Source: a bacterium
GTDB lineage: Bacteria > Zhuqueibacterota > QNDG01 > JABMRT01
Length of the DNA: 64,000 nucleotides
Assembly (NCBI GenBank): GCA_011046415.1
Contig: DSAP01000089.1
Location: forward strand, 4,064-68,063
Direction of reading: 5' to 3'
Shown here: one piece after another, positions 8,201-44,785 of the stretch
How the letters are laid out: each line of letters opens with the position of its first letter
Numbering within the stretch: position 1 is the stretch's first letter
Program-made: the position numbers and the translations under genes
The notes under the pieces: model-generated
Told to the model about the DNA's origin: nothing
Database searches by the model: none
The model's input: the letters and a program-made list of their open reading frames with translations, nothing else

Positions 8201-8384
8201 CCTTGCTGTCGTCGTAATAGTAGACATCGAAGTGTTTGGTCTGGATATACCGCCAGTTAAATTCCCTGTACTGGACCTTGTTCTTTCCGAATCCCTGGGC
8301 AAGGCCATGCCCCGAAATCATGAAGACGGACATCAGGATGATCCCGCCGGATGAAAGACGCTTCAGTCGCTTTCGTGATGCCAT
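5238..8384 (-). CDS. Outer-membrane Omp85/D15-family beta-barrel fused to a TolB-like (PD40) beta-propeller and an N-terminal HExxH-containing domain
   Basis: Signal peptide MASRKRLKRLSSGGIILMSVFMISGHGLAQ, with the start trimmed from the track start at 8516. HELTHA motif. Repeated SPDGR/SWSPDG PD40 blades. C-terminal about 430 aa with Omp85 motifs (LELRFP..LGGPLGIGFQNIRGSVFLDVGSAWS..GGLGFGARVNMGFLLLRYDIAWP) ending in ..WSLGADF. Confidence 0.75.
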   Translation of the reverse strand: MASRKRLKRLSSGGIILMSVFMISGHGLAQGFGKNKVQYREFNWRYIQTKHFDVYYYDDSKGLAEFAADVAESSYVALKKNFRYDLESRVPIIIYNGANDFQQTNVTLSDIGESVGGFTEIFKNRVALPFQGSYEDFRHVIHHELTHAVTFQMFYGGGVGAAVTGMARFQIPLWLAEGLAEYESLGWDTKSDMFMRDAVINGYVPPIEYMSGFMVYKGGQSLLNYIADRYGQEKIGEILGKIRLNRNVDTGIKQSLGIDLEELSDRWHKHLRRTYWPDIQDRNEPEEIAKRLTDHAKRNHFFNAAPALSPKGDKLVYLSDRSDYMDIRLMSTVDGKDKGRIVKGQRSELFEQMHWLRPGMSWSPDGRRITFAAKAGRGDRLYILDVGRRRIVRQFMPDLDGIYSPSWSPDGRHIAFMGVKGIQSDIYLLEIESEKTERLTDDLFSDMDPSWSADGTELVFVSDRQDYLGTVPDGFRMQTHDYSQNDVYVMDVASRQITRITATSADEKSPAFSPDGRHIAYISDQSGVDNIYLYDRNQGTHYPVTNLMTGISQLSWSREGSRLVFSAFSNAGYDLYLINNPLDIRPDEVRVVDTAFMQQKKEADPEEPPPSPSAEQPAGRFQNFVFDRNFREGRIEGQDLRSRAFPDSGEFKTEDGDYISKKYKVRFTPDMVMGGAGYSQFFGLQGSSMIVLSDILGNHQINLYTDLFYSLKNSNFMAGYYYLPKQTDIGISLFHYSYLYYTYFIYDNSWYYGYLRDRNYGVSLYLSHPMSRYRRIDFSATGLAIDRDLEALNWYYPYYGGDYSYSLGSIYKKRTVFFSLGYTTDTVLWGMTGPVNGGRSNITLTYSPLISEDRGFSFYSARADWRKYLRLVRDHTLAIRLSTGFSNGRNPQRFLLGGMTNWINYKYRDVFDEILYEDLFFFSSFEGPLRGTPFYEMIGTRFALMNLELRFPMIRYLILGGPLGIGFQNIRGSVFLDVGSAWSSNRQWRPFTDGPGLLPRLNQARGGLGFGARVNMGFLLLRYDIAWPTDLVSTQKRPMHYWSLGADF

Positions 8385-8409
8385 GATGAACCCCGATCCC
8401 TGAGTGAAG

Positions 8410-8994
8410 TTACAAATCCGACTCATCTTTCCAACGCGTGATACGCCACTTTTGATCCTTGTTTTTTTTAAACGTGAATACAGCTCTGCCGGTGACGGTG
8501 TATCCGGTCTGCTCACCCACCAGGGTCAACCCGAATCCCCGGCTGATGTCGCTCGTTGTTTCGCCCGCGTTCTCATAAATGGTCTCATTCCAGACCAGAT
8601 CGATGACCTGGAAATGGCGGAACATCCGGCCCGTGGTGAGGAGGTCTTCGTGCCGTCCCCAGGATACGAACCGGCTCTCGTCCGGATTGAAGTAGACGAA
8701 AAGAAAGCCCGTATCGAGCACGTCGCTGTAGAGCAGGGAGTCGCGGAAGGTGTACGCGATCTTGAAATTCTGCAGCACCTCCTGCGGTGTCGCCTGGGAC
8801 GTGATGATCATGTCCGTCGCCTCCAGGTTGTCGGTCAGTCTGGGCGCGAAGGGGTTGAGACAGCCGGAAGAGAGGACGAGACCGGCGCAGACCGCAGCCA
8901 TCACCGCGAACCGGGTCGTGACGAACCGCATCCGTTTCTTTCGGCTCCCGGATGTCTTTCCGGGAACGATTTTATGGTTCCCACCCCGTTTCAT
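8410..8994 (-). CDS. Lipoprotein, hypothetical
   Basis: Lipobox LVLSSGC after a basic N-terminus. There is a 25-nt gap to the downstream Omp85-fusion gene. Confidence 0.5.
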   Translation of the reverse strand: MKRGGNHKIVPGKTSGSRKKRMRFVTTRFAVMAAVCAGLVLSSGCLNPFAPRLTDNLEATDMIITSQATPQEVLQNFKIAYTFRDSLLYSDVLDTGFLFVYFNPDESRFVSWGRHEDLLTTGRMFRHFQVIDLVWNETIYENAGETTSDISRGFGLTLVGEQTGYTVTGRAVFTFKKNKDQKWRITRWKDESDL

Positions 8995-10337: not shown

Positions 10338-10546
10338 AGATTTTTCCTGATTATCTCCCGGACCAACCCCCAGGGCGAACCGGCTTCGGGATTCCGATGA
10401 TATGAATCAAGCCGCCTGTCGAGTTCTGCTTTCTGAGATTCAGTCAAACAAGAAAAGGCAGACCGGGATCTGCCTTTTCTGTTGGATGTTTCGGAACGGA
10501 AACCTCTTACAGATTCTCGATAACCGCCTGCCCGAATTCGGAACAC
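10334..10546 (-). CDS. Putative addiction-module antitoxin (TIGR02574-like C-terminus). The N-terminus is uncertain and may be truncated.
   Basis: C-terminal [37 protein letters not shown] matches the addiction module component family. The N-terminal 30 aa of the track ORF overlap the icd 3' end and look unlike the family. Confidence 0.5.
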
Positions 10547-11856
10547 TTCAGCTTGGTCGCCCCTTCCATCTGGCGTTCGAGGTCATAGGTGACCCGCTTC
10601 TGGCCGATGGTCTTTCCCATCGCACGGATGATCCTCTCCGCCGCCTCGCCCCATCCCAGATGCTCCAGCATCATCGTACCGGAGAGAATCACGGAGCCGG
10701 GATTCACCTGATCCTTGCCCGTGTATTTCGGAGCCGTGCCGTGTGTCGCCTCGAACAGCGCGATCCGGTCGCTCATGTTGGCGCCCGGCGCGAGCCCCAG
10801 CCCGCCCACCTGGGCGGCGCAGGCGTCCGACAGATAATCCCCGTTGAGATTGGGAAGCGCGACCACATCGTACTCGTCCGGGCGAAGGAGTACCTGCTGG
10901 AACATCTGATCCGCGATCCGGTCCTTGATCACGATCCGGCCGGCCGGCTTCTTCCCGTCGTATTGATCCCACAACTCCTTTTCCGTCACGATCCGGTCCC
11001 GGAATTCCTCCCTGGCCAGCTCATATCCCCAGTCGCGGAAGGCGCCCTCGGTGAATTTCATGATGTTGCCCTTGTGGACGAGCGTCACGGACTCACGGTT
11101 GTGATCGAGCGCATACTGGATGGCCTTGCGCACCAGCCTTTTCGTGCCCGTGATGCTGATGGGTTTGATGCCCACGCCCGAATCCGGGCGGACCGTCTTG
11201 CCCATTTCCTCGGAGAGGAAGCGGATCATCTTTTTCGCCTCCGGGGTGCCCTGTTCGAATTCGATGCCGGAGTAGACGTCCTCCGTATTTTCCCGGAAAA
11301 TCACCACATCGAGCCTTTCCGGCTCCTTGACGGGACACGGCACGCCCTCGAACCAGCGTACAGGCCGGACGCAGGCATACAGATCGAGCTGCTGACGCAG
11401 CCCCACGTTCAGGCTGCGGAAGCGCCGGGTGACCCATTTCGAGCCGCATTTGACACAGGCCGCGGGCCGGGCGTCTCCCTCTCCGTTCTGTTCCGCCGCG
11501 CATTCCAGACAAACATAGTGGAAACCGCCGACCGGCGTGGTGAGCGGCCCCTTGATGGCTACGGCATATTCCCGGATGGCGGCCAGGGTGTCTCCGGGCA
11601 GGACGGTGTCGATTCCGTATTTCTGAATGGCCTTGAGTCCCGCGAAAATTTCGAACCAGACGATCTTCTTTTTGCCGCCGTAGGCCTTCGCGACCGCCGC
11701 ATCGAGCACGGGTTGTGTCGCGCGCCAGATATCGGGACCGGTCCCGTCTCCCTCGATGAAGGGGATGACGGGATGATCCGGAACCCGGATCTGATCGCCT
11801 TCGAATGAGATTTTTTCTCCCGCGGCCGGTGGGACCAGTTTTTCAAACGCCGCCAT
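10507..11856 (-). CDS. icd: NADP-dependent isocitrate dehydrogenase (prokaryotic homodimeric type) carrying a Cys4 insertion
   Basis: Alignable end to end with E. coli Icd ([57 protein letters not shown]), except for a 32-35 aa insertion. Confidence 0.9.
11419..11523 (-). other. In-frame insertion in icd encoding a CxxC-(N16)-CxxC zinc-ribbon-like knuckle immediately N-terminal to the conserved regulatory Ser (RSLN)
   Basis: PVGG-[[35 protein letters not shown]]-RSLNV here, against PVGG-GI-RSLNV in E. coli. The codons were read directly from the DNA. Confidence 0.8.
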
Positions 11857-11882: not shown

Positions 11883-13814
11883 TCAGTCGGTAATCTGCTG
11901 TTTCGCAAAAGCCAGTGCCCCGCCTGCCCGCAGGATCCGGACGTCCCGTCCGGACAAATTGTGAAGGACGCGAATGTCGGTTCCCTGTGTCTCGTTTCTC
12001 AGCATCATCCTGCCGGAATCCAGGCCGGAGGTGTCGATCGTCACGGTGTCGTCCTGTGCGATCGTTTCGTAGTCTCCCTCGTCCTCGAACACGAGAGGGA
12101 GGATACCGAAATTAATCAGATTGGCCAGATGGATCCGGGCGAATGATTTGACGACGACCGCCTTCACGCCGAGCGCCATGGGGGCCAGTGCCGCGTGTTC
12201 CCGGCTCGATCCCTGTCCGTAATTGGCGCCGCCCACGACGATGCCGCCTCCGGCTTCCCGTGCCCGTTTGGGGAAGGTGGGGTCCACCGCCTCGAACACA
12301 TATTCGGATATCGCGGGGATGTTGGACCGCAGCGGAAGGATTTTCGCCCCCGCGGGCATGATATGATCGGTCGTGATGTTGTCGCCGACCTTGAGGAGCA
12401 CCGTTCCCCGGACCGGATCGGACAGGGGTCCCTTGATCGGCAGCGGCTGGATATTCGGCCCGCGCTGGATGACGACCCTCTCCGGCGCATCAGACGGGAG
12501 GAGGATCATGGCATCGTCCACGGGAAAAGTTTCGGGGGTGCGGACCTGAACCGGCTCCATGCCCAGGTCGCGGGGATCCGTAATTTCACCGGTCAGGGCC
12601 GCCGCGGCCGCCGTCTCCGGGCTGCACAGATAAACCCTGGCGCTCTTGGTGCCGCTGCGTCCCGAGAAATTCCGGTTGAAGGTGCGCAGCGAAACCGAAT
12701 CGGTCGGGGGCGAGAACCCCATGCCGATACACGGGCCGCACGCGTTCTCAAGGATGCGGACGCCCGAGGCGACGATGTCTTTCCACTGACCGCCGTCGAT
12801 CAGGGCGGTCAGGACCTGCCGGGATCCGGGAGACAGCGCGGCCGAGACACCGGGATGGATTTTGCGTCCTTTCAGCATGGCGGCGATCATGGCCACGTCC
12901 CGGAAGCTTGAATTGGTACAGCTGCCCATGGCCACCTGATGAACCTTCGTCCCCTTGAGAGAATGCACAGGCACCACGTCATCCGGTGAATGCGGCCGGG
13001 CGATCAGGGGCTCCACGGCGGACAGATCGATTTCGAGTACCTCGTCATAGTCCGCATCCGGGTCCGCCCCCAGCGGGAGGTAATGTTCGTCCCGGCCCTG
13101 GGCCCTGAGAAAGATCCGCGTCATCTCGTCGCTCGGAAAAAGCGAGCTGGTGGCTCCGAGTTCGGCCCCCATGTTCGTGATCGTGGCGCGCTCGGGAACG
13201 GTCAGCGTCTCCACACCGGGGCCGGAATACTCCATCACTTTACCGACACCGCCTTTGACGGTGAGCCTCAGGAGGATTTCGAGGATGACGTCCTTGGCCG
13301 AAACGAACGGCCGGAGCCTGCCGGTCAGACGGACATTCACGATCTTGGGCATGACGAGGTGAAACGGCCGTCCGGCCATGGCCAGGGCGATGTCGAGTCC
13401 GCCCGCGCCGATCGCCAGCATGCCGAGTCCGCCGCAGGTCGGGGTGTGGCTGTCGGATCCGAGCAGCGTCTTTCCGGGAAGTCCGAACCGCTCGAGATGG
13501 ACCTGATGGCACACACCATTTCCGGGACGCGAAAAGCGTATCCCGTATCGGGATGCGATGGTCTGGAGGAACAGATGATCGTCCGCATTTTCGAATCCGG
13601 ACTGGAGGGTGTTGTGATCGACGTAGCTGACTGAAAGCTCTGTGCGTATCCGGTCGAGCCCCATGGCCTCGAACTGAAGATAAGCCATGGTGCCGGTCGC
13701 GTCCTGGGTCAGGGTCTGATCCACACGGATAGCAATCGGGGAACCCGCAATGGATTCCCCGCTTATCAGATGACCCGTGATGATTTTCTGTGTCAGATTC
13801 TGTGGTATCATCAT
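11883..13814 (-). CDS. Aconitase-family hydratase (fused catalytic and swivel domains, about 640 aa). It is probably an aconitate hydratase, given the adjacent icd.
   Basis: Motifs [33 protein letters not shown] and [17 protein letters not shown]. Start trimmed to MMIPQNL, where the ATG overlaps the upstream TGA as ATGA. Confidence 0.75.
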
Positions 13815-14482
13815 CCATTTCCGCGGCCTGCGATGGCCTCGCGTTGTTTTTGGGAATTCAGATGCATCTTGCGCAGCAGTTTCCAGATCGTCAGCTTCCC
13901 GACCCGGATAAATCCGTACCGGTCCGTGTCGAGTTCCCGGGCGATCTGGCCGTGTCCCCATGAAGGGTGATCCAGCGCGATCTTGCGGATTTTTTCTTCG
14001 AGTCCTTCAGGAACATCCTCATCGGCTCCCTCCGAAGTCCGGATTTCCGTTTCCGCGTTTTCGGGTTCCTCTTGAACGGAATCAAGCTCTGCGGACTCTT
14101 CCTCGATGAAAGTTCGTGCTCCGTCCGCGCGATTGAAATCCCGGATCGCCGCCTCGACCGAATCATAGGCTTTGAGTATATAATGGAATTCGAGGAGTTC
14201 GAATACTTCGTATACGTCCGGAATCATGTTGGCCAGCTTGAGGTCACCGCCGCGCTCCCGGATTCCTTTGATCTCGCTGATGAAGATTCCCCAGCCGGCG
14301 CTCGAAATATAATCCACGTTCCGGAGATCGATGATGACGCGGAAGACACCCGATTTGAGCAGAGAATCCAGAGCGCGTTCGAGCTCTGAGGATGTGGTGG
14401 TGTCGATGTATCCGCCCACCTTGATGATCGAAATATCCTTTTGGGTCCCCGTTTTCTCTACAGAAACTTGAATGCCTTCCAT
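13811..14482 (-). CDS. STAS-domain anti-sigma-factor antagonist (SpoIIAA/RsbV-like) with a C-terminal transposase-type HTH extension
   Basis: STAS core with the phosphorylatable-Ser motif NVDYISSAGWG. Then an acidic linker and ALDHPSWGHGQIARELDTDRYGFIRVGKLTIWKLLRKMHL, an HTH_32-like sequence. Start taken at MEGIQVSV. Confidence 0.75.
   Translation of the reverse strand: MEGIQVSVEKTGTQKDISIIKVGGYIDTTTSSELERALDSLLKSGVFRVIIDLRNVDYISSAGWGIFISEIKGIRERGGDLKLANMIPDVYEVFELLEFHYILKAYDSVEAAIRDFNRADGARTFIEEESAELDSVQEEPENAETEIRTSEGADEDVPEGLEEKIRKIALDHPSWGHGQIARELDTDRYGFIRVGKLTIWKLLRKMHLNSQKQREAIAGRGNG
13814..13993 (-). other. HTH_32-like (IS3/IS481 transposase N-terminal type) DNA-binding module appended to the STAS protein
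   Basis: About 45% identical over about 55 aa to the HTH segment of the neighbouring kinase/phosphatase protein (the HPxYG..I..EL..xKYGF signature). Confidence 0.6.
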
Positions 14483-14556
14483 TTTCATCTCCTTAAAAAA
14501 ATTATCATTATATAACATAATGACACAACGAAATTTAATAGAAAATCACACCATTG

Positions 14557-17500
14557 TCAACTTTTTTTCTGATAAACCGCCCTCTGCCGGATAAGCCGCT
14601 GCATCCGTTTAATGCGTTCCACGATATCGCCGCGCATGGGATCGCGCTTTAAAACCTCTCCCCACTGCCAAACCGCCCTCTTATAATCTCCCTGATTGGC
14701 GTAGATGACCCCCAGATTTTCGAGGATATGGACATTGTCCGGCATCAGCTCGCGGGCGGCCGTATACGCACGCTTGGCCTTTTCGAGCTGCCCCAGACGA
14801 AAATAGGCATCGCCCTGGGCATGGTAGGCTGCACCGAATTTCTGGTCGCATGCGATGGCCTTGTTGAACTCTTCGATGGCCCGAGCAAAGAGACCTTCCT
14901 GGTAAAACCACTGGCCGGATTCCAGAAACCGCATCCGGTTGAGCCGCCGGGCATTCTCCGGGTTGGCCTCCAGGATGGCCGGTTGCCGAGTCTCCAGATC
15001 CGACCCTTCACCGAGAAGGGAATCCGTCCATATCTCCATGTCCGTCTCGTCGAAAATCTCTCCGGTTATTCCGGATTCTTTCCGGCCCGAATCCTGGTTT
15101 TCCTCGCCGATCAATTCATCTATCAGAGATTCCTGCGAACCATCGGATAAAAACCCGGACATCAGGGGAAAAAACGCCGGATCATCCCCGGATTCTGTAA
15201 CCGCTTCCGGCAATACATCGCCACTGTCGTCTCCTGCGGCGAGCGGGTCGTCAAACGAGTCATCCATCCGTATCAGGAGACCGGAAGAATCATCAACGAG
15301 TGATTCAAACGAGAAGTCATCCCGGGGATCAGAGGACGGCTCACCCATCCTCTCAGTCAGCGCCTCGTCGATGTTTTCGGGGTGGGGCTGCTCGGATTCG
15401 GATTCGACGTCCAGTTCTTCCCAATCGGCTTCCATGGCTGAAATTTCCTCGTCATCGCCGGCGGACTCTCCGTCGTCTTCGGATGCGATGCCGGTGAAAT
15501 CGCGTTCGATCGCTTCCGCAAGGTCCTTGTCTCCGGGCGGCTGGACGGTCACTTCCGGTGTCTCCTGCACGGAAGGATGTTCTTCTGCTTCCTTATGTTC
15601 GGGTGGGGCGCCGCGTGAAACGGCGATCTCAGGTTGTTTTTCGGCCGGTTTTCCCTGGAGGTGATCCGTTTCGGGCGTCTTCTTTTCGGGCAGAGACGTT
15701 CCGGGCGACGGTTTCGAAGGGGCGGGCTTGCGGAGTGTCGGCGAAATAATAACCCGACCGTCCAGCGTCAGCATGGGCGTCCCCGGTGTTTTCATCCGTT
15801 TTCCGCGTCCGCCCCGCTCCACGAAGGCCATGCGGAGTTCCTTGGTATTGAGACGGTTTCGCACCAGTTCTTCGTATAACCGGGCTTCATCGATCTGGAA
15901 AAAGCCGTATTTTTCCGTGTTGAGCTCGTCACGGATCCGTTTCGGTCCGTACTCGGGATGGGTCTTGATTACATCAAAAATCTTGGCCTTGTCTTCGATG
16001 GCGATGTGTTTTTCTTCGATGAGGGAGCGGCCGACCCGGTCTTTCATTCCCTGCTCGCCGTTTTTTTCATAGAGTTTTTTATATTTATAATAAGTCGACG
16101 TGGAAACGCCCGCCTTCTCACAGGCCTCCTTGACTGTCATGCCTTCCTTCTGCACCATGCGAAGCAGATCCGTATGGATATTCAGAAACACCTCTTCCAC
16201 GCTCATCTTCTCGCGGATCGCAACCAGGGTGATGTCATCGCTCTGCGGCTCCCCGCCCGTAAAGGTATAGATCTCCTGTTTGATGCTCTCGACGAGGGGT
16301 TCCACCTTCTGATCGCCCGCCTTGCGGATCACGGACAAAAACCGCTCGTCTCCGAACCGGTTCCGGTTGATGTCCATCGCCTCGGTGATGCCGTCCGTAT
16401 AGACGATCAGCACATCATCCGGACGAAGCTGAAGCGTGTCCGACTCGATGGAATTTCTGAACAAAGTCTGGTCGGGCAGGTTGATTCCGATCGGAAAACC
16501 GCGCGGGTTCAGATAGTAGCTTTTCTGGCTTTGACCGCGGTAAAGAATCATGGGATTATGACCCGCGCTGGCATAGTTGATCGTCCTGCGTTTCGAGTCG
16601 AGGATGATGTAAAACACGGTGACGAACATGCCGCGCTTCATGTCGTTGATCACGAAATCATTGACTTTGGACAGCACATCGGCCGCATTCTTGTTGCCCC
16701 GCGCCTCCGTCCTGAGCGCCGTCCGAATCATGGTCATGACCAGTGATCCGGGCACCCCTTTGCCGGACACATCCGCGACCACGATTCCCAATGAATCCCT
16801 GTCCACCCTGAAAAAATCGAAATAGTCACCGCCCACCTCCTTGGCGGCCTCGTAGCAGGAGGCGATCTCATAGCCATCGATTTCAGGGAAGGTCGCCGGA
16901 AGCAGGGTGTGCTGGATTTCCTGGGCCACCTGCATTTCTTTCTGGAGCCGTTCCTGTTCCGCCAGATTTTCCTGGGATTTTCTGAATTTCTCCGTGATCT
17001 CGTTGAAGGCCTGGGCGATCTCGCCAATCTCGTCGTTCCCATCGAATTCCATCTCGTCCCGGACCTCGCCGTGGCCCAGATCGCGGACCCATTTGGAGAG
17101 TTTCTTGAAGGGACTCATGGTAAGATAGACGAGTCCGAATGTGAAGAGATATCCGAAAGCAAGCGCGAGAATCGCCTTGATAAGAGTAAATTGACGTTCC
17201 GATTTGATCGTTGCATCGATCATCTGTTTGTTCATCAACACATGGACGGTACCCAGGCGGATATTCCGGTTGTCCACCTGCTTGAGGGCCGGTTCGACGA
17301 CATCATACACCCTGACCCCGTCATGCTGAAACTGATACACATGATCACGGATCGGGTTCGCCCCGGCCGGCAAGATGAATTCATTGTGAAGCGCTTCGAG
17401 GTTGACGACTCCCTGAATTACGTTGATCGTATCCACGACGATGATCTCGACGATGCGGGGATGATATTCCCTGTGAATATCGGTCACGATCGTGGACAAG

Positions 17501-18153
17501 TCCCACCAGTTTGGGGGGTCGTAAGAAAGATACTCGATACTCTGGTGGCCGACGGACCTGGCCAGCGTTTCACCGGAAGCGAGCGCATCATTCCTGATTT
17601 TATTGTCAAGATGAAGATAGGTCCAGATGAACCAGATCAGCATCAACGCCGTCAGGAGCACCGAAGCGAGCGCGGAAAACCGGGTTTTCATGGAAAACGG
17701 AATCTCCGGAGTACGGAGCCGTTTCATGCCGGTCTTTCTCGATTTGGTGAGCCGGAGTTCATTGCCTTCCGGAAGTTTCCGGTAATCGATTTTGTCGATC
17801 ACACGCCGGATAATAAATATCCCGAGGCCGCCTTTCTTGCCGATATGCACGTAACGCTGGAGATCCGGGTCTTTCACCTGTCTGGGATCAAAGGAGTGCC
17901 CCTGGTCCACCAGCGACACCGTCACGTCCTTATCCCGGATTATCATCCGCATGGTGATCGCGCCTTCCCAGTCGCGGTAGGCGTGCCGGATGATGTTGGT
18001 GCCGGCCTCGTCGATTGCCAGTTTGAAGGCGTTGATCACCTGCTCTGAGATCCCGTGTTTCCGTCCGAAATGCATCACGGAATCGCGCATTTCACCCAGA
18101 TGATCGATCTCGGCAGGGAAGGTCCATTCTTCTTTGATGACGCGTTTGAACAT
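14557..18153 (-). CDS. Multidomain partner-switching regulator: RsbW-like GHKL Ser kinase, TM, periplasmic sensor, TM, HAMP, PP2C/SpoIIE phosphatase, transposase-type HTH (HTH_28 plus HTH_32), polyacidic region, TPR repeats
   Basis: Residues 1-145 are HATPase_c-like (AIDEAGTNIIRHAY, GGLGIFIIRRV). There are two hydrophobic helices. HAMP is NDEIGEIAQAFNEITEKF. PP2C is GGDYFDF..VADVSGKGVPGSLVMT..GHNPMILY..IVYTDGITEA. HTH is MTVKEACEKAGVSTSTYYKYKK followed by THPEYGPKRIRDELNTEKYGFFQ. A D/E-rich stretch of about 170 aa follows, then C-terminal TPRs. Confidence 0.8.
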   Translation of the reverse strand: MFKRVIKEEWTFPAEIDHLGEMRDSVMHFGRKHGISEQVINAFKLAIDEAGTNIIRHAYRDWEGAITMRMIIRDKDVTVSLVDQGHSFDPRQVKDPDLQRYVHIGKKGGLGIFIIRRVIDKIDYRKLPEGNELRLTKSRKTGMKRLRTPEIPFSMKTRFSALASVLLTALMLIWFIWTYLHLDNKIRNDALASGETLARSVGHQSIEYLSYDPPNWWDLSTIVTDIHREYHPRIVEIIVVDTINVIQGVVNLEALHNEFILPAGANPIRDHVYQFQHDGVRVYDVVEPALKQVDNRNIRLGTVHVLMNKQMIDATIKSERQFTLIKAILALAFGYLFTFGLVYLTMSPFKKLSKWVRDLGHGEVRDEMEFDGNDEIGEIAQAFNEITEKFRKSQENLAEQERLQKEMQVAQEIQHTLLPATFPEIDGYEIASCYEAAKEVGGDYFDFFRVDRDSLGIVVADVSGKGVPGSLVMTMIRTALRTEARGNKNAADVLSKVNDFVINDMKRGMFVTVFYIILDSKRRTINYASAGHNPMILYRGQSQKSYYLNPRGFPIGINLPDQTLFRNSIESDTLQLRPDDVLIVYTDGITEAMDINRNRFGDERFLSVIRKAGDQKVEPLVESIKQEIYTFTGGEPQSDDITLVAIREKMSVEEVFLNIHTDLLRMVQKEGMTVKEACEKAGVSTSTYYKYKKLYEKNGEQGMKDRVGRSLIEEKHIAIEDKAKIFDVIKTHPEYGPKRIRDELNTEKYGFFQIDEARLYEELVRNRLNTKELRMAFVERGGRGKRMKTPGTPMLTLDGRVIISPTLRKPAPSKPSPGTSLPEKKTPETDHLQGKPAEKQPEIAVSRGAPPEHKEAEEHPSVQETPEVTVQPPGDKDLAEAIERDFTGIASEDDGESAGDDEEISAMEADWEELDVESESEQPHPENIDEALTERMGEPSSDPRDDFSFESLVDDSSGLLIRMDDSFDDPLAAGDDSGDVLPEAVTESGDDPAFFPLMSGFLSDGSQESLIDELIGEENQDSGRKESGITGEIFDETDMEIWTDSLLGEGSDLETRQPAILEANPENARRLNRMRFLESGQWFYQEGLFARAIEEFNKAIACDQKFGAAYHAQGDAYFRLGQLEKAKRAYTAARELMPDNVHILENLGVIYANQGDYKRAVWQWGEVLKRDPMRGDIVERIKRMQRLIRQRAVYQKKS
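15814..16161 (-). other. Transposase-derived HTH_28 plus HTH_32 module embedded in the kinase/phosphatase protein
   Basis: Residues about 665-780 of the 1198-aa protein. No DDE catalytic domain follows. Confidence 0.6.
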
Positions 18154-18172: not shown

Positions 18173-20092
18173 TTACGGTTTCCTGAACGTTTGCAGCTTC
18201 TGCTTGGCGCCTTCGATCGCCTGAATCAGATTCACGTTGTGAGGATCTAGGATTAACGCCTCCTCCCAGACCTGAAGCGCCTCTTCATACCGTCCGTCGC
18301 GATATAGCCGGAGGCCCTCGTTCATTTTTCCGCGCACCTCTCTTTGTTCTTCTTCTGAGAGCGGTCTTTCATCCTTCGCGGAACGGGCCATGGCATTGCG
18401 GTACAGAGTCAGGATCCTGTCATTGTCCGGCTGATACTCCAGCGCCCTCTTGAAGAACGGGACCGCCTCCTCAAACTGTCCCCTGTTGAATCTCTCGATA
18501 CCGGCCTGGACATTGGATACATAATCCACGGCCTGGGCAAGACGGCGGATTTCCTGGTTCAACAGGTTTTCAAGGGAAGGAATGCCGACCGCCTGAGACC
18601 GGGCCTGTTCGAGTACGTTCCTGGCTTCAGACAGGTTTTCCTGCTGTACGAGGTTTCGGGCCCGCGAGATCGCCCGGTTCACCTGGCGTTCGAGTTCACC
18701 CCGGGCCTGCTGAATATAACGGATCAGGATTGCATTTCCGGGATCCACGGCCAAGGCCTCACGCCATCTTTCTATGGCCCGCTGATAATCGCCCCGCTCC
18801 ATGGCCTGATTGCCCTCCTTGAGTCGGGCGTTGACCAGTTCAAGATTCTGCCTGATTTCCAGCCTTTCCCGTTCCTCCCGGAGGATGGAATCCTGGCGTG
18901 CCTGCTGCCATTCCAGTTCACGCTCTTCCGTTATCCGAAGGAATTCCTGAGCCCGGGTATTGTTCCGGTCTTCCCTGAGCACACGGTTGAATTCGATTCG
19001 CGCGTTAAAATAGTCGCCCTTGTGGAGGTACTCCTGTCCGGACTGCAGGGCGTCGCGGATCCGTTTCCGGCGGTCCTGTTCCATCTTTTCCTGCAATTGG
19101 ACTTGCATTTCTTCCTCATGCCGGAGGCGTAATTCCTCCCTCGTTTCGGGGAGGCTCTTTCCGATATGGACGCTGAGTGAAAACAGATGGCTTCGCCTGA
19201 AAAAATCGGATTCGGACATTTTTGCCGTGGCATAATCAAACTGAATCGCTCGGTACCGAATGCCTCCCCCGAATGAGAGGCTGCCCTGATCGACTCCCAT
19301 GCGGAAGAAAACCAGGTGGTCGAAGGCATATTCACCGCCGAGGTGATAATGCAGTTTGCGGTTTTTAAGCCAGTCGACATCAGAGAGGAATACCAGCCTG
19401 TCCTGTCCGTCCCTCAATGAAAAAGCCTTGGCGAGGCCGATACGGGTCACGGTCGGCAGGGTTTCCGTGCGTGTCCCGAGTTTCATGCGCGGATTCACGG
19501 CATGCACGAGATTCATACCCAGGTGCAGCCCGTCCAGAAATCCTCCATTCCCGGGGAATGTATAATGGATCCCCGTGTCCAGGCCAAAGCCGTTTGTCGC
19601 ATACTGGCTACCCATCACCTGTCTGTTGACCTCCAAATTGAGGCCGACGGCGAGCCCGCGATAAACCGGGAGGGCGTAAGCCAATGAAAGTTTTCCCCAC
19701 CAGTAATCAAAATCTCCCGTGGACACCGGGACGCCCTGGATCTCCTCATATCCCGGGATACCGTCCGTGCCGACCCGTGAGAATCCGAATCCGAAGACAC
19801 CCGCATTCAGGGTCGGATGGACATATCCGATAAAATGGTATTGAACTCCCTCGAACAGCGTGGTCTGACTGAACAGGGCGTTTTTGCTCTGAACCAGCAG
19901 CATCCCCGCCGGATTCCAGGAAAAAGCGGAGGCATCTTCAGGAAAGGCGACGGATGCTCCGCCCAGACCCAGGCCGCGGGCGCCGATCCCGATGGAAAAC
20001 GGGCTTTCCCTGCCGGCGTCTCCATTTACTTCGGCCTCGGAAACACCCGTCAGCAGCCCAAAAAGACAGACAAAGACAAGTTTCAAACGCAT
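18173..20092 (-). CDS. FadL/PorV-family outer-membrane beta-barrel (about 310 aa) fused to an about 330-aa TPR / coiled-coil C-terminal extension
   Basis: Signal peptide, then GARGLGLGGASVAFPEDASAFSWNPAGM, a FadL/PorV N-terminal hatch-like motif with NPAG. There are alternating-hydrophobic beta strands and the barrel ends ..GGIRYRAIQFDYA. The C-terminal half is rich in TPR-like and charged coiled-coil repeats. Confidence 0.55.
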   Translation of the reverse strand: MRLKLVFVCLFGLLTGVSEAEVNGDAGRESPFSIGIGARGLGLGGASVAFPEDASAFSWNPAGMLLVQSKNALFSQTTLFEGVQYHFIGYVHPTLNAGVFGFGFSRVGTDGIPGYEEIQGVPVSTGDFDYWWGKLSLAYALPVYRGLAVGLNLEVNRQVMGSQYATNGFGLDTGIHYTFPGNGGFLDGLHLGMNLVHAVNPRMKLGTRTETLPTVTRIGLAKAFSLRDGQDRLVFLSDVDWLKNRKLHYHLGGEYAFDHLVFFRMGVDQGSLSFGGGIRYRAIQFDYATAKMSESDFFRRSHLFSLSVHIGKSLPETREELRLRHEEEMQVQLQEKMEQDRRKRIRDALQSGQEYLHKGDYFNARIEFNRVLREDRNNTRAQEFLRITEERELEWQQARQDSILREERERLEIRQNLELVNARLKEGNQAMERGDYQRAIERWREALAVDPGNAILIRYIQQARGELERQVNRAISRARNLVQQENLSEARNVLEQARSQAVGIPSLENLLNQEIRRLAQAVDYVSNVQAGIERFNRGQFEEAVPFFKRALEYQPDNDRILTLYRNAMARSAKDERPLSEEEQREVRGKMNEGLRLYRDGRYEEALQVWEEALILDPHNVNLIQAIEGAKQKLQTFRKP

Positions 20093-20119: not shown

Positions 20120-20362
20120 TTATTTTACGAAAGCCATTTTGAATTTAAATATCTCTCCATTTCCGGTCTGCATGATCAGATGGTAGACGCCGTTCAAGAC
20201 CTCCCAGCCCCTGTCATTGCAGCCGTCCCATGTCCAGCGGTTCACCTGGCCGGCCGACACCTCCGATTCGGCGACGTCATATGACTTGACGAGCTGGCCG
20301 ACAAGGGTATAGATTCTAAAGGAAACGGAGGTCGGTTCCGGAATGTAGTAATAGATCGTGGC
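20120..20362 (-). other. Coding segment for the T9SS-type (Por_Secre_tail / FlgD-Ig-like) C-terminal sorting domain of the giant protein
   Basis: Matches the general TIGR04183-type pattern (NPF...I.Y.I..V..IY.L.GQLV....G...W.G.....G..GVY.......K...K). Confidence 0.55.
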
Positions 20363-23300
20363 GGTCTCCCTGCCCGGCTCACCGAACGGATTGGGACTGC
20401 TCCACAATCGGGCTTCTTCGTTTGGATTGAAAATCCGGAGTGGCGCCGAAGGAATGCTTTCCAGTTCGTCTCCTGTCGGACTCTTGACGAGTACGTCACG
20501 GTCTGAAGCGGCTTCTCTCGCCGAAATGGCCTGTCCGTCCGGCACGCTCACCCTGAAAAAGGGGACGGTCTGTGACTCCGCGATGCGTCCGCGAATCAGA
20601 ATTTTTTTGCTCTGATTGTAAGGAATTTCGAGACCGGACAGGGAAATCCGGACCGGGTTGGCCTCCGGAATCTGGGCCGTCGTTCCGTAAATGTCCGGCC
20701 CATTCATCTCGACCGCCTCGAGACGGGACACCGCCGACCGTGGCCCGATATCTTCGCCTTCCCGTCCCGTGAGGGTCAGCCAAATCTCGCGGATGATGAT
20801 GGGATAGGCACCGGTTTCTCCCCGGTTCTGAAACTCCAGGCCGAGCAGGGGGACGTTGCTTTGCCCGGGCGTCAGGGACTGATTTGCCCCGGACAAGACC
20901 AACGGCGTCACAGAGAGCCAGGTTGATTGTAACCGGACGGCGACGGCATGATAATCCCGTCCGACAAATGCAGGTTGATCGGTATTCTCATCAACGGGAA
21001 TCTTCGTGAGCCGGGATTCGATCTGGGCGGCCGCGGTGGAAGGTTGTGACGGGGCTTTAATCGTCCAGAAGGCCTCGCCGCCGGAGAGTGTTTGCGCCAG
21101 GACCTCCCGTGTGGTATATTGAGGTGGAAGCGCGAGGAGCGAGACTTCGATGTCACCGATGGTTTGGGCTTCCCCGGAATTCTGAACCGCGGCCCGGACC
21201 ACGAATTCCTGTCCCAAAGAAACCGTGCCGTATTGTGCAGCCTCCGGCGGACTGTCGATCGTCAAGAATAGCGCAAGATCGGCCTTGGAAACGGTGTTCA
21301 GGGGGAGTGCATTCGGTACTCCTCCGATGGGAACCGCGGGTTGCAATGCATCAACACCCCTTGCCGTAACGATGAGAGTGCCTTCGGATACAGGCGTCGT
21401 CGGAGCCGTGACCAGCCAGGTCACCGTATCTCCGCTCGCGCTCTGGGTCAGGTTGTTTTTGGTGTGATATCCGAAGGGGAGTTCGATCCGTGCCGTGATT
21501 TCCGTGACATTGTCGGAAATCATTTCTGTCCGGACCACGAAGGACTGTCCCGTGGACAGGATACCGTCCGAGGCGCCCGACGGTGCGGAAATGGACGTGA
21601 CGGATCTCAGCCGGCTGGCGATGGTGGTAATCGGCGCCTCGGCAAATTGATCTGTGACGACAACCCGGACATCCGTGTTTTTATCGATCGGATACTGGAT
21701 CAGATCGACGCGGACCTTGTCGTTTGTCGAAGGTTCATTCGGGGCCCTGAGTCGCCATTCTGCCGGAACCTCAGGAGTGATACCGGCCGAATCCGACGCC
21801 GAGATCAACTGGTATCGATCGGGCCAGCGTATCCTCACGCGTCCCTCATTCTTTAATGCGGAAGATCCCTGCTTGAGCAGTCTGCCCTTCACCTTGAATT
21901 CCTGATTGACAGAAACCACACCGTCGGCCGGTTCGGTTTCTATACTCAGAGAGAGAGAGGCTGGACTCTGGACAAATACCACGGCGGTGGGATCGCTGGC
22001 CTCTCCGATGGGTGCGTCATCCGTTCCGTTCTCCCGTTTAGCCCCCTGAATCCGGGACGTAAAGGTTTCTCCGGAGAGGTTTTCCTGATTTGCCGCCAGT
22101 ACGTCAAACCACACCGAGTCACGTCTGGAGGGTTCAAGGCGGGTTAACAGGACCTGCGGATTTTCGATGGCCGAAAGGCCATTGGATTCCATCCGGACGT
22201 CGATGTTGCGGATCGTGAAACTCAAACCGTTCTCGACGATCACCAAGACACGAAAAGCCTGTCCGGTATTCACGAAGCCGTTTTTTGACTCGGTGGTGTT
22301 TACTGTCGCGATTTCCGTCGAGATAATCCGGAAATCCGGTTTGGACTCGATAAAGACCTGCGCCTCGTTCTCTGCCCTGAGCGTCCGCAGGTCGTTGCGG
22401 TCTTTGCCCCCGGCCCGGACGCGGATCCGGACATCTCCTCCGTAGGTACCGGTCGTATTCACATGATAGATCAGCGAATCGGTCACCCCGGGGGCGAGGA
22501 TCAGGCCGCCTCCTTTCAATGCGTTCGGGGGAACGACTTTATAATCCGTCTGATAAATGCCGCCCACGAAGAAGGCGACGCTGTCGGCAGAGGGTCTCGA
22601 GAGTTCGATCGCCGACCCGCCTGTGTTGCGGACGGCGACCTTGATGTGCCACGGATCGGTTTGACCGCCGAGAAGAAGAGTCTGTGAAGTCGAGACGGAC
22701 AATACCTGAAAGACCGCAGGATTCTGGATGGTCGCCGTGGCCGTCTTGTCTGGAGAATTCCCGTCCTCCAGGAAAAGGGCCGTGTTTTCGGCAAATCCGC
22801 TTGCAGAAACGGTGAATGTCTCCGATCCGGGAAGGGTCGACGCCGTCACCGGAACGGTCAGAGAATGAACCTGCCCACCGGATAATGTTCCGATATAATG
22901 TGCCCTGACAAAAGATGAGGTGCCGGAACTTCCGATTTCCACCTCCACATCCCGCATGGCGTCTTCGCCGAGGTTTTCGACCTGGAGGAAGAGATCGAAA
23001 ACCTGCCCGCGGTTCACATACGGGCTGTTCGGGGCGCGGTTGGTGACTTGCCGGACGATCAGATTGGCCGGTGCTTCGATCAGGACTTGCCCGTGACCGC
23101 CGTCGCGCGTGTCTGTCTCGAGTCGCCGCCCTGTAGTCATTTCGAGGCCTGCAACATAGGCGTCGATCCTGCAAAGACCGGCGGCCTGATCGGTCGTCCG
23201 TGTCACTTCAAATATCAGACTGTCGGTTTCACCTCCCTCAAGAACCCAGTCACCGGTCCAGGAAGGCGGATAGGTCAACTCCCATGTCTGGGGAGCGCCC

Positions 23301-26300
23301 AGAGAAAATTCCAGATAGCTCGCGGTCGTACTCGAGTCGATCGCCGTCGCGCTTCCTCCGGTGTTGGTGGCCACGACGGCCACACGCCAGGGCATGACCT
23401 GGCCCCGAGAGACCTCGGCCTGGGACGGCTTGACCATATGGATCACCAGATTCGCCGGCGTCTGTACCAGGAGGTTGGTAAATGCATCATCCGACAGGGT
23501 GACCCCGGAGCCCAGCAGATACACGAAAAGCCGAATCGTGGCGCCCCCCGCATCGCTGCCGGTGTGAAGAACGGGAATCAGGAGCGAATCGATCCCGTTT
23601 CCGGGCAGCGTCTCCTCGGCGCTGCCCCAGAACGCCGTCGGCAGCTGGAGGGTGTAATCGTGGCGCACGATACCGGCCACATTGAATTGAAGCCGGACAC
23701 TGTCGAGACGGACCTCTGATCCGCTGAAATTGCGGACGGTACAACGGAGATACCAGACCGAATCCTGATCGGTTGTGACGGATTGAATGCCGGTGGCCCT
23801 GTCTTTCCCGACCGCCCTGAAATCGGAGACCAGAATGCCCGGAGAAAGCACCACATCGAACAAATTGGATTCCGAAAAAATAAAACCGCCTGTCTGAGTC
23901 ACTCGCATTCGGTTGGCCGTCCTGGCCTGATGCACCGTGACGCCGGTCGTCAACACGCCGTTGCTGAAATTCGGGCTGACATCGGGTCTGATCGTGCCTG
24001 TCAGATCCGAAATATCCACGGTTTGGGTGAAATTGGTCTTGACATTGCCGTAAGCGTCTTCTGCGGTAAGCGTGGTTGAAAAGGGAACCCCCACGATCTG
24101 ATCCCCGATATGCTGGATCGCAAATCGGTTCAACGCCGCGGGCAGCACGTTGAACAGATTGGAACTTCCCCTTTGCACGCCCCCCTGGTAAACCATGATT
24201 CTCACATCATTCCTGGCCCCTGTAATTCGAACCGTTTGTGTGAGGAGGCCGGCGCTGAACGATCCGGTCGCAGCCGGCGTCAGCGTGCCTGTGCTGTCGG
24301 AAAGGGAAACCTGTCCCGCAAACTGGGTCACGATATTCTGATATGTGTCGAGCGCGGTCAGGTATATCTGGAAGTCTGTACCCGCCATCTGCGGACTGGC
24401 CACCGGGGCCACAGAAATGGTCTGAACCGACCCCGGATTGACATTGAAGACCTCCGAGACGCCGCTTTTCCCGAGTCCGCTCACGGTAAGCCGGTTCTGT
24501 GACTGGCTCTTCGTGATGGTTACCGTGGCGGTCCCCACACCGGATGAGAAGGTGATCTGTTTCACATCATTGGTCCCGGTAAGGTCTGCGAGATTGACCG
24601 TTTCATTGAAGCCGGTGACGAGATTGTTGTTCACGTCATAGGCGCGGACGGTCACGGAGAATCCCTGACCCGCGGTCTGCGGCGTCGATATCGGATCAAA
24701 TGTGAAATGGTCCACGGTCGTCGGGATCACGTTGAAGGTATTCGAGATGGCGCTTTGCGTACCACCGTCCCGGACGACCGTGATCCGGTCATTCGTTTGG
24801 GTCTGGGTCACCGAAATCGTGCCAGACCAGATGCCGCTTTGAAAATCATCGCTCTGAGACCGTGAAAGCGATCCCGTGCCGGTATGGCCGATGTTGACCC
24901 GGTTTCCCGGTCCGCTAAACCCTGTCACGGTGTTGTCATACGCATCCTGCGCGGTCACGGTGAGGCTGAAGGGCACGCCCGGCGTCTGGGTGGCGATCTG
25001 TGCGATGGCGAAATGATCCAGTGTATTGGGCGCCACGTTGAAGGCGTTCGATGTCCCCGTATGGCCGGCGCCGTCGTCCGCCGTGACCCGGACATCGTTG
25101 ACCGCCTGTGTAATCGTCAGGGTGACCGTACGGGTGCCGTTCGAAAAGGCGCCGGAAACAGACGGCGAGATCACGACGGGAGAGGAACCCGACGCGGCTG
25201 AAAGCGGAACCGTGCCGTTAAACGACTGTGAGACATTTCCGAAGGCGTCGCGTGCCGTGATCGTGACCGGAAAACCGGTTCCCGCCGTTCGCGGACTGGG
25301 GACTGCCGAAAACTCAAACCGGCTGACGCCCGCTCCGGCCACATTGAATGGGTTGGAAGTCCCGCTTTTACCCAGCGCCGTCGCGGTCAGGACATTGCTG
25401 TTCATGGCTTGCGAGATCGAAATCGTACCCGTCCATGTCCCGTCGACGAGGGTGACCTGCTGCGGCGAATGCGTTCCCGTCTCATCACGGATATTCACCA
25501 CCTGGTTGGTGAAACCGGTCACAATATTGTTGTTGACATCTTCGGCGCGGATTGTTACGGAAAAACCGACGCCCGCCGTCTGGTTCACGGGAATCGCGGA
25601 AATCACGAAATGGTCGACCGTACTCGAAATCACATTGAAGGCGTTCGACTGGCCGGTGTGTCCGGACCCGTCGTTCACCGTAATCCGGTCATCCGTCTGG
25701 ATTTGATTGATACGCAGGTTTCCGGTCCAGACACCGCCAGTAAAATCGCCGCTCTGGGTGGGAATGAGGGTTCCCGTACCCGTATGGGAAATGTTGACCC
25801 GCCGGCCTGAGCCGGAGAAGGAAGCGGCCGTGTTATCGAAGGCATCCCTCGCCGTGATGGTCACCAGAAAAAATTCTCCCGCCGACTGGGTGCTGATGTT
25901 GGACAGGGTGAAATGATCCACGGCCGCGCCGTTGACATTGAAGGGACCGGATGTCCCGGTGCGGCCGCCTCCGGAAGCCTGGATATATATGTCCGTGTTC
26001 GCCTGGGTAATCCGGACATTCCCCGTCCAGACGCCCGAGGAGAAATTTTCTGTGCTCGCCGAAGATGTGGCATCAACCGTGACCGTACCCGTCTTCTCGC
26101 TGAGGGTCGCCGGATTCGTATAATCTGTCTTGATATTGTCGTAACCGTCATAGGCCGTGATGGTCAGGCTGAACGGAACACCGGCCGTCTGCGGACTGGA
26201 GATGGGGCCGAATACAAATTGATCCAGGGCTCCCGGTAACACATTGAATGCGGCGGATGATCCGGAACTCGTACCGGATGTCGCCAGGATCGCATTGGAA

Positions 26301-27025: not shown

Positions 27026-27169
27026 CCTTCAATTTTGCGGATTGAATAAGCACTCGCAAATTAAGTACCAGCTAATCATAGGAAAGAACAAAAAGCCTTA
27101 AACCTTTAAAATACAATAACATAACAGATGCTTGTCCCTGTCATGAATCCTCCGGGCGATGGCCAGAAA

Positions 27170-31673: not shown

Positions 31674-31690
31674 GTGACGACTCCTCCATG

Positions 31691-32704: not shown

Positions 32705-32713
32705 TCAAAAACG

Positions 32714-44779: not shown

Positions 44780-44785
44780 GACACA

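Follow-up and report, generated by a model that had tools for sequence, protein, structure and literature searches.

A membrane protein with fused RsbW-like kinase and PP2C phosphatase domains, its probable STAS-HTH substrate and their linkage to a type IX secretion cargo gene

In the 64-kb stretch of contig DSAP01000089.1 analyzed here (hereafter the window), we found a gene for a 1198-aa membrane protein that joins an RsbW-like serine kinase domain to a phosphatase domain of the PP2C type in one chain, followed directly by a gene for a protein with a STAS domain and a helix-turn-helix (HTH) module. We consider it probable, at roughly 60%, that the 1198-aa protein, hereafter the enzyme, is a membrane-anchored bifunctional sensor of the SypE kind that controls how far the neighbouring STAS-HTH protein is phosphorylated. 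The output would then run via the basic C-terminal HTH of the STAS protein and not via capture of a locally encoded sigma factor.

Partner-switching modules are among the most widespread signalling devices of bacteria, and their non-sigma outputs are poorly understood. In the canonical RsbU/RsbV/RsbW and SpoIIE/SpoIIAA/SpoIIAB systems, the kinase and the phosphatase are separate proteins. To our knowledge, the target of SypA, the STAS protein controlled by SypE, is still not known. The enzyme family described here would join a fused antagonistic pair of the SypE type, a histidine-kinase-style transmembrane (TM) input and a STAS-HTH output of the CapS type. As judged from sequence, its most interesting aspects are two unexplained features, namely the paralogous transposase-derived HTHs in enzyme and substrate and the near-invariable linkage to genes for a giant type IX secretion system (T9SS) cargo protein and a PorV-like barrel. 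If surface or secretion status is indeed linked to transcription in this way, the system would represent a new kind of envelope monitoring in mostly uncultured lineages. It would also be well suited to clean studies of the way in which a single chain keeps antagonistic kinase and phosphatase activities in balance. Even if the locus proved to encode no more than a common anti-sigma system whose sigma factor is unlinked, a useful annotation correction would result.

Kinase and phosphatase domains in one reading frame

The enzyme gene spans positions 14557..18153 of the minus strand, on which all features described below lie unless stated otherwise, and forms a single stop-free open reading frame (ORF) with all domains in one frame. 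Pfam places an RsbW-like GHKL kinase domain at the N-terminus (HATPase_c_2, residues 12-137, 17743..18120, E 4e-27) and a PP2C phosphatase domain in the centre (SpoIIE, residues 452-647, 16213..16800, E 1e-50). These profile matches bear out the first-pass annotation of this DNA, which had assigned both activities to one 1198-aa membrane protein without database searches.

The NCBIfam RsbW models align to residues 9-140 of the enzyme, and a comparison with RsbW of B. subtilis (6m36_A) gave an E-value of 1.4e-10; SpoIIAB aligns as well, with its boxes in register. The kinase boxes are kept in the RsbW alignment as N-box DEAGTN, G1 DQGHSFD and G2 KKGGLG (E49/N53, D83xG85, G108GLG). In an alignment of the enzyme with homologues labelled KSB1, Calditrichaeota and Cloacimonas (alignment A2), D48, E49 and N53 of the N-box, D83xG85 of G1 and G105-G111 of G2 are invariant, as are the PP2C aspartates D443, D446, D461, D587, D639 and D640. 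For a motif census we used 120 listed homologues each for the enzyme and the STAS family; the PP2C metal-binding Asp motifs GGDYFD, DVSGKG, TDGITE and DDIT were present in 118-120 of the 120 enzyme homologues. Relatives of the PP2C domain in a sequence search of the PDB were the REC-PP2C regulators 3es2/3eq2, Rv1364c (3ke6, E 9e-12) and 6k4e ("Putative serine phosphatase"). Judged by these motifs, both catalytic domains are real, fused and catalytically intact.

The phosphatase domain is followed by an HTH region, which is discussed below, by an acidic, poorly conserved and probably disordered region (residues 851-1050, 15004..15603; 64 D/E versus 8 K/R) that varies in length and sequence across A2, and by C-terminal TPR repeats (~residues 1078-1175, 14629..14922; TPR_2, TPR_16 and TPR_11), for which the Pfam matches span ~1096-1170. 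Hydropathy analysis gave no TM segment after residue 347 of the enzyme, and the TPR repeats are predicted to be cytoplasmic. Pfam and amino acid composition thus agree with the HAMP, HTH, acidic and TPR parts that had been proposed previously.

A search covering 5.8 billion proteins returned at least 120 full-length orthologues of the enzyme with the same domain order, and the same domain set was found in all 120 that were listed (42-100% identity, mostly 1100-1470 aa). The fused architecture, which had been suggested for a check in related genomes, is hence not confined to the window. Among the more distant variants (P0297, P0305, P0290 and P0299), some have no TPRs (~850 aa) and others carry three STAS domains after the HTH. 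The family is uncharacterised yet widespread, with 300 confirmed matches among the species-representative genomes of GTDB. The best 80 of these 300 matches are all from metagenome-assembled genomes, mostly labelled "bacterium" or "uncultured bacterium", KSB1, "uncultured Cytophagia" or Calditrichota. Current NCBI annotation of the homologues reads only "SpoIIE family protein phosphatase" or "tetratricopeptide repeat protein", and that of JGI "serine phosphatase RsbU / anti-sigma regulatory factor". In the literature, we did not find the exact architecture described, nor partner switching tied to T9SS, KSB1 or Calditrichaeota.

The transposase-like HTH region could be taken as a sign that the long ORF is an artefact, that is, a mis-assembly, a gene pair hidden by a frameshift or a gene broken by a fragment of an insertion sequence (IS). 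However, the frame is free of stops, the identical protein is present in assemblies that were made independently (Logan, JGI and ENA), and neither an rve domain nor IS ends were found. Moreover, the 120 listed orthologues keep the order including the HTH down to 42% identity. An architecture common to more than 100 full-length orthologues is therefore not a frameshift artefact, and we give this explanation practically no chance. With the listed orthologues and the independent assemblies, both a frameshift and an assembly artefact are ruled out.

The presence of both activities in one polypeptide, which had been implied to be new, has precedents in SypE, HsbR/CrsR and Rv1364c. SypE from Vibrio fischeri is a kinase-REC-PP2C protein that controls the STAS protein SypA at S56, with no sigma factor involved. 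It resembles the enzyme in its N-terminal RsbW-like kinase, its C-terminal PP2C domain, the input between them and a STAS substrate that is encoded separately and, in the case of SypA, phosphorylated on the conserved Ser. However, SypE is soluble and has a receiver (REC) input, whereas the enzyme has a TM-PDC-TM-HAMP unit at this place and gives no Response_reg match; SypE also lacks the HTH, the acidic region and the TPRs. In addition, SypA is a single-domain STAS protein, whereas the STAS protein of the window carries an HTH, and the context of SypE is a polysaccharide locus as opposed to a T9SS cargo/PorV-like pair. HsbR/HsbA and CrsR/CrsA of Pseudomonas and Shewanella likewise rely on a fused PP2C and GHKL kinase/anti-sigma domain that controls a STAS antagonist. 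Unlike the enzyme, HsbR and CrsR are soluble, have the order REC-PP2C-kinase and act on FlgM, HsbD and RpoS. Rv1364c from Mycobacterium tuberculosis combines PAS, PP2C, kinase and STAS in one chain, so that sensor, phosphatase, kinase and STAS are fused, and the distant variant P0297 of the enzyme also fuses STAS. Rv1364c differs in its PAS input, its cytoplasmic location, the position of PP2C before the kinase and its regulation of SigF. The canonical RsbU/V/W and SpoIIE/AA/AB systems as well as those of the membrane RsbU of Chlamydia and of SiaA/SiaB/SiaC share the same three catalytic and partner domains with the locus described here, but their kinase is separate and they have no HTH modules.

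Sensor input between the two catalytic domains

In the enzyme, two predicted TM helices, a periplasmic domain and a HAMP domain lie between kinase and phosphatase. TM helix 1 comprises residues 157-183 (17605..17685; Kyte-Doolittle maximum 2.16, K/R on the N-terminal side) and is a helix in the AlphaFold2 (AF2) model; TM helix 2 comprises residues 322-347 (17113..17190; Kyte-Doolittle maximum 2.07, followed by K/R). By hydropathy, both have K/R-rich cytoplasmic flanks and enclose an external segment of 138 aa, close to the ~140 aa estimated in the first-pass annotation.

The enclosed segment (residues 184-321, 17191..17604) is predicted to be a periplasmic sensor domain of the PDC/single-Cache type, with a pLDDT above 90. 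In the AF2 model of residues 150-400, which has a mean pLDDT of 86.9, TM helix 1 extends as a long helix into the periplasm and is followed by another helix, a sheet of six strands, TM helix 2 and HAMP. In Foldseek searches, the periplasmic segment matched the extracytoplasmic PAS/PDC domains of WalK, KinD, DcuS, DctB and CitA with TM-scores of up to 0.76 on the target, and domains of the WalK type were better structural matches than CitA. The match to the Chlamydia RsbU periplasmic domain was only weak. Pfam gave no meaningful match for the isolated periplasmic segment of the window enzyme; the distant homologue P0290, however, matches sCache_3_2 at the corresponding position.

The HAMP domain (residues 344-388, 16990..17124; 33.7 bits versus a gathering score of 25) is followed by the conserved helical linker LAEQERLQKEMQVAQEIQ, which lies between HAMP and PP2C and is invariant in A2. 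A coiled-coil linker mechanism has been proposed for sensor-linked PPM phosphatases, including HAMP-linked ones. The linker LAEQERLQKEMQVAQEIQ would fit such a mechanism, although we infer its applicability to the enzyme by analogy. According to the model, the input is of the typical sensor-histidine-kinase type. What is new is that this histidine-kinase-style TM-PDC-TM-HAMP unit is placed between kinase and phosphatase.

Like the enzyme, Chlamydia RsbU and SiaA belong to the membrane PP2Cs that have a periplasmic input, a HAMP input or both. The best NCBIfam match for the TM-HAMP-PP2C part of the enzyme is also SiaA, at 78.5 bits versus a family cut-off of 700. With this score far below the cut-off, the lack of a REC domain and an HTH of another class, the enzyme family is, on the basis of its domains, outside the SiaA, SypE, HsbR/CrsR, Rv1364c and CapS groups alike.

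The adjacent STAS-HTH protein

The STAS gene was first listed as an ORF of 235 aa (13811-14518). The true start is the ATG at 14482, which is preceded by an AAGGAG ribosome-binding site 7 nt upstream, and the gene thus covers 13811..14482 and encodes 223 aa. Independent gene calls also give a protein of 223 aa, and every orthologue begins with MEGIQ. The position of this gene just downstream of the enzyme gene and its DYISSAGWG motif are therefore as previously described, while its length had to be corrected. The family comprises at least 120 orthologues of 207-236 aa.

The STAS domain covers residues 1-120 (14123..14482; Pfam E 3e-18). Its VDYISSAGWG motif contains Ser60 (codon 14303-14305), the candidate phosphorylation site by virtue of its motif position relative to S56 of SypA and S58 of SpoIIAA. 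The motif D[YF][IVL]SS[AS]G was present in 120 of 120 listed family members. In the AF2 model of the protein, calculated from a 42-sequence alignment, two domains are separated by an acidic, probably disordered linker (residues 121-160, 14003..14122; pLDDT below 50 at 121-156; 15 D/E versus 2 K/R). The top Foldseek matches of the STAS domain were SpoIIAA (1th8_B, TM-score 0.86) and RsbV (6m36), both from complexes with their kinases. The C-terminal domain (residues 161-220, 13823..14002; pLDDT ~88) is predicted to form four helices of the HTH_21/HTH_32 type. When the C-terminal 74 aa were scanned alone, HTH_21 scored 29.9 bits versus a gathering score of 28.1 and HTH_32 matched as well, in line with the HTH-type domain proposed for this protein before. 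Its net charge, counted from the translation, is about +6. Foldseek with the model of the whole STAS-HTH protein returned STAS matches only.

We examined the synteny of the cluster in a set of 84 loci, of which 80 stem from species-representative genomes of GTDB; the denominators of the gene-order counts are the loci with enough flanking sequence. The set includes the closed metagenome-assembled genome OY843751.1 (L084), and the genus Caldithrix was represented by a metagenome-assembled genome. In 67 of 73 loci, which are labelled KSB1, Calditrichota or "bacterium", the next gene downstream of the enzyme gene encodes the STAS-HTH protein. In addition, an exhaustive HMMER search with the HTH region revealed distant variants, P0297 (1511 aa) and P0305, in which the enzyme backbone is the same and is extended C-terminally by three fused STAS domains with the signature YISSxGWGxF; the last residues of these variants form a basic tail, GW(A/S)xYGxxLxRxxKK. 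The fusion of STAS to the enzyme in P0297 and P0305 is classical gene-fusion evidence for a functional pair. Based on the conserved adjacency and on the fused variants, the STAS protein is very probably the substrate of the enzyme, as had been assumed.

Some KSB1 genomes (loci L035/L061 and L034/L071) contain two clusters of giant, PorV-like and enzyme genes, the second of which has no adjacent STAS gene. One STAS protein may serve two sensors in these genomes.

Paralogous HTH modules in enzyme and STAS protein

The HTH region of the enzyme (residues 663-800, 15754..16167) is bipartite and of the IS481/IS3 type, with matches to HTH_28, HTH_Tnp_1 and HTH_23 at residues 664-709 and to HTH_32 at 687-749. 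Positions 5-110 of the NCBIfam IS481 transposase model NF033577 correspond to residues 663-771 of the enzyme (E 1.8e-15). Neither the enzyme nor the STAS protein contains an rve (DDE) catalytic core according to Pfam and NCBIfam. The HTH is therefore a domesticated binding module and not a transposase. An active transposase or an IS insertion is ruled out by the missing rve and by the conservation of the region across KSB1, Calditrichaeota and Cloacimonas homologues.

Together with the sequence RMK(T/P)PGTPMLTLDG, the HTH region is among the best conserved parts of the enzyme in these homologues. This invariant sequence follows the HTH at residues 787-799 (15757-15795 of the window). We take it to resemble the start of the IS481 rve core (PGELxHxDxK), which would imply a truncated transposase N-terminus.

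The C-terminal HTH of the STAS protein is, by sequence comparison, a paralogue of a part of the enzyme HTH, a relationship that had not been noticed before. An alignment of STAS residues 159-219 with enzyme residues 717-779 in hhalign gave a probability of 98.4% (E 5e-15), whereas controls with the kinase, periplasmic and TPR regions remained below 1%. Similarly, tblastn with the STAS protein cross-matched inside enzyme genes at ~36% identity.

At E <= 1e-3, the exhaustive HMMER search with the enzyme HTH region yielded 455 cluster representatives among 1.84 billion. Ten lower-ranked matches that we scanned were enzyme variants of the same family and small, tandem-HTH transposase-like proteins. 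A sequence search of the PDB with the HTH region returned just one marginal match (2lvs_A, E 0.024).

Output of the proposed circuit

For a STAS-HTH protein with a direct DNA-binding output, which had been suggested as a possibility here, there is an experimental precedent in CapS from Enterobacter. CapS is a STAS repressor with a winged HTH that is released from DNA when it is phosphorylated by the HTH-carrying GHKL kinase CapK (EMBO J 2026, PMC13373217). In both CapS and the STAS protein of the window, STAS is followed by a C-terminal HTH in a kinase substrate. The kinases differ, since CapK is a soluble HTH-STAS-GHKL protein that has single-stranded DNA as its activator, lacks a phosphatase and belongs to an immune operon. 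By analogy, the system described here would work as SypE does where its input is concerned, and its output would plausibly be like that of CapS. Membership of the CapS family was considered and rejected, as there is no match at the sequence level.

In the circuit that we propose, an extracytoplasmic signal would act through HAMP and the linker and shift the balance between the phosphatase and kinase activities of the enzyme. This balance would raise or lower the level of phospho-Ser60 on the STAS protein. The likeliest output is phosphorylation-dependent DNA binding by the STAS protein, as in CapS, and its HTH may act together with, or compete against, the paralogous HTH on the membrane-tethered enzyme.

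Several points weigh against this reading. We infer everything beyond the domain assignments. In six of 73 loci, no STAS gene adjoins the enzyme gene; two of these loci (L061 and L071) are second copies, and a complete cluster is present elsewhere in the same genomes. Among homologues, the periplasmic domain shows little sequence conservation, which makes a single common ligand uncertain. HTH_21 is itself only a predicted DNA binder, and the HTH_21/HTH_32 type of the STAS protein, which as a transposase-type module follows a 40-aa acidic linker, differs in sequence class from the MarR/ArsR-type winged helix directly after STAS in CapS. Consistent with this, a profile of the STAS-HTH family searched against the PDB retrieved single-domain STAS proteins only and not CapS. 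The variants with fused STAS domains have no second, HTH_21-like module, and this loss suits tethering as well as DNA binding. Finally, a sigma factor may be encoded outside the window.

The tethering function just mentioned leads to a different account, in which the HTH-like modules are protein docking domains: the STAS C-terminus would pair with its paralogue on the enzyme and tether the substrate, and the output would run through another partner of STAS, as for SypA or HsbA. That the two modules are paralogous, that the module is absent where STAS domains are covalently fused to the enzyme and that a long flexible linker separates it from STAS would all suit such a role, and SypA and HsbA work through protein partners. 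However, the families matched by both modules are DNA-binding HTHs from transposases, the module of the STAS protein has a net basic charge, and CapS shows that direct DNA binding by a STAS-HTH protein is possible. Docking as the function of the modules is thus possible but doubtful in our view; moreover, docking and DNA binding are not mutually exclusive.

Classical partner switching has to be considered as well. Here, the N-terminal RsbW-like domain would be a membrane-tethered anti-sigma factor, from which an unlinked sigma factor is displaced by unphosphorylated STAS, and the HTHs would be accessory. The closest relatives of the kinase domain are indeed RsbW and SpoIIAB, the structures that the STAS fold matches are antagonists from anti-sigma complexes, and HsbR and CrsR, which are fused regulators too, bind RpoS although its gene lies elsewhere. 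In contrast, a Pfam scan of ~40 ORFs in the 64-kb window revealed no member of a sigma-factor family, nor did the called genes in the neighbourhoods of four relatives, which extends the earlier statement that no sigma factor is encoded nearby. An anti-sigma mechanism would also leave the HTH module, which is strongly conserved in both proteins, without an explanation. We regard it as rather unlikely and favour control of the STAS-HTH protein by the SypE-like sensor.

Linkage to a giant T9SS cargo and a PorV/PorQ-like barrel

The tightest linkage of the enzyme gene is upstream and not downstream. In the window, six genes with short spacers run in the same direction on the minus strand, encoding a giant protein, a PorV-like protein, the enzyme, the STAS protein, aconitase and isocitrate dehydrogenase (icd). 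The PorV-like gene lies directly upstream of the enzyme gene in 74 of 74 loci, and the giant gene precedes the PorV-like gene in 63 of 64. Four genes hence travel together in the order giant cargo, PorV/PorQ-like barrel with TPR, enzyme and STAS, which is a new finding; the near-invariant upstream partners had been missed in the first-pass annotation.

The PorV/PorQ-family outer-membrane barrel (639 aa, 18173..20092) scores 95.7 bits with NF033709 versus a cut-off of 90 and has a C-terminal TPR/coiled-coil half with TPR matches. The giant secreted protein (~2298 aa, 20120..27016; ORF 20120-27025) has a T9SS type A sorting domain (TIGR04183). Its C-terminal 110 aa score 23.3 bits with this model versus a cut-off of 23, and 21 of 22 orthologues match. 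The protein ends in a conserved domain, PNPF...WDGxN...NGVY...KIAVVK.

Because the T9SS-cargo and PorV/PorQ-like genes are almost always found upstream of the enzyme gene, the sensed signal probably has to do with the giant surface protein itself or with the way it is secreted or anchored. The giant-protein/barrel cluster would probably be among the genes under control. A parallel exists in the T9SS of Porphyromonas, where the cargo PorA stays with PorV and its C-terminal domain (CTD) is the periplasmic ligand of the inner-membrane sensor PorY. The gene order of cargo, PorV-like protein and sensor suggests, by analogy, an arrangement like that of PorA and PorY, although PorY is a histidine kinase that acts via PorX and SigP, whereas the sensor of the window is a kinase/phosphatase fusion. 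T9SS cargos have also been found to be genetically linked with dedicated shuttle barrels, to which the pair in the window is again a parallel by analogy. One could go further and imagine the four genes as a trans-envelope device for surface signalling. In such a device, the CTD of the cargo or the periplasmic TPR arm of the barrel would be the ligand or co-sensor of the PDC domain, the signal would flip the kinase/phosphatase balance, and the phosphorylation state of STAS would decide whether its HTH is held at the membrane by the paralogous HTH of the enzyme or is free on DNA. If this were true, the locus would specify a sigma-independent partner-switching circuit that is built on a domesticated transposase DNA-binding domain and is characteristic of the lineages labelled KSB1 or Calditrichota in which it was found. 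We put this forward tentatively, as a speculation that is rather unlikely to be correct.

In a search for intrinsic terminators on the coding strand of the cluster, the sole intergenic candidate was located at 27145-27120, upstream of the giant gene. It consists of a 9-bp stem-loop with a T-rich tail (27120-27145) between an upstream TPR gene (27170-28453) and the giant gene. The stem-loop could function either as an inverted-repeat operator or as a terminator, in which case it would mark where the transcription unit of the cluster begins.

STAS promoter and the downstream aconitase and icd genes

A sigma70-like promoter is predicted in front of the STAS gene (14532..14561, TTGACA-17-TAAATT, 10/12 matches); its -35 element, TTGACA, shares bases with the codon that terminates the enzyme gene. 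The pattern TTGAC(A/T)-N13-19-TAxxxxAT occurs in 60 of 67 enzyme-STAS spacers, compared to a mean of 0.23 in shuffles. Since this promoter is conserved, STAS, and here also aconitase and icd, is probably transcribed on its own from it. An extended block of the promoter region, GATTTTCTATTAAAT, is common to close relatives and might hold an operator.

Downstream of STAS, the window contains genes for aconitate hydratase (11883..13814; PRK07229, 961 bits) and NADP isocitrate dehydrogenase (icd, 10507..11856; TIGR00183, 665 bits), both of which are lineage-specific neighbours. It had been proposed that STAS is translationally coupled into aconitase and icd. In this genome, the STAS stop codon does overlap the aconitase ATG (ATGA, 13814-13811), whereas icd starts 26 nt after aconitase without an overlap. 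The overlap with aconitase is not conserved either, since the corresponding gap is 62 nt and 49 nt in two close relatives (L004 and L005). Where enough downstream sequence was available, aconitase was present in only 14 of 61 loci and icd in only 15 of 61. Together with the conserved promoter of STAS itself, these numbers speak against the two genes being part of the system. Their adjacency appears to be a lineage-specific operon arrangement that is driven by the STAS promoter and lies outside the core system.

The same data bear on the idea that the locus is a dedicated regulator of the tricarboxylic acid (TCA) cycle, which might, for example, sense external carboxylates via the PDC domain and control the expression or activity of aconitase and icd. 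The ATGA overlap with icd following 26 nt behind aconitase, the occurrence of one or the other gene after STAS in several lineages and the PDC fold, which is common to the carboxylate sensors DcuS and CitA, are in favour of it. However, the two genes are found in a minority of loci, the overlap is not kept even in close relatives, WalK-type domains are better structural matches than CitA, and the T9SS-related genes upstream are far more tightly linked (74/74 and 63/64). We therefore consider a dedicated TCA-cycle regulator clearly unlikely and retain the SypE-like sensor of the STAS-HTH protein as the preferred reading.

Further observations in the window

Outside the cluster, two tandem genes on the plus strand (55331-60630; 761 and 1005 aa) each encode an MFS-like membrane domain and a spermine/spermidine-synthase-like domain, the second with additional TPRs. 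The plus strand also encodes a FIST-domain protein and, after it, a histidine kinase with the domains PAS-HisKA_2-HATPase_c (43580-47011); this is a separate signalling pair that is unrelated to the fused enzyme. On the minus strand, a PilM-like protein (31691-32704) is located between ORFs of 359 and 624 aa without family matches (30594-34588 in total). Finally, a gene at 5238-8516 of the minus strand encodes a protein with Peptidase_MA_2, Tricorn-like and PD40 domains. Proteins of this type with ~1050-1090 aa were found in loci L001, L004 and L005, with Omp85 in addition in the L001 call; in close relatives, their gene is conserved at a distance of a few genes downstream of icd.

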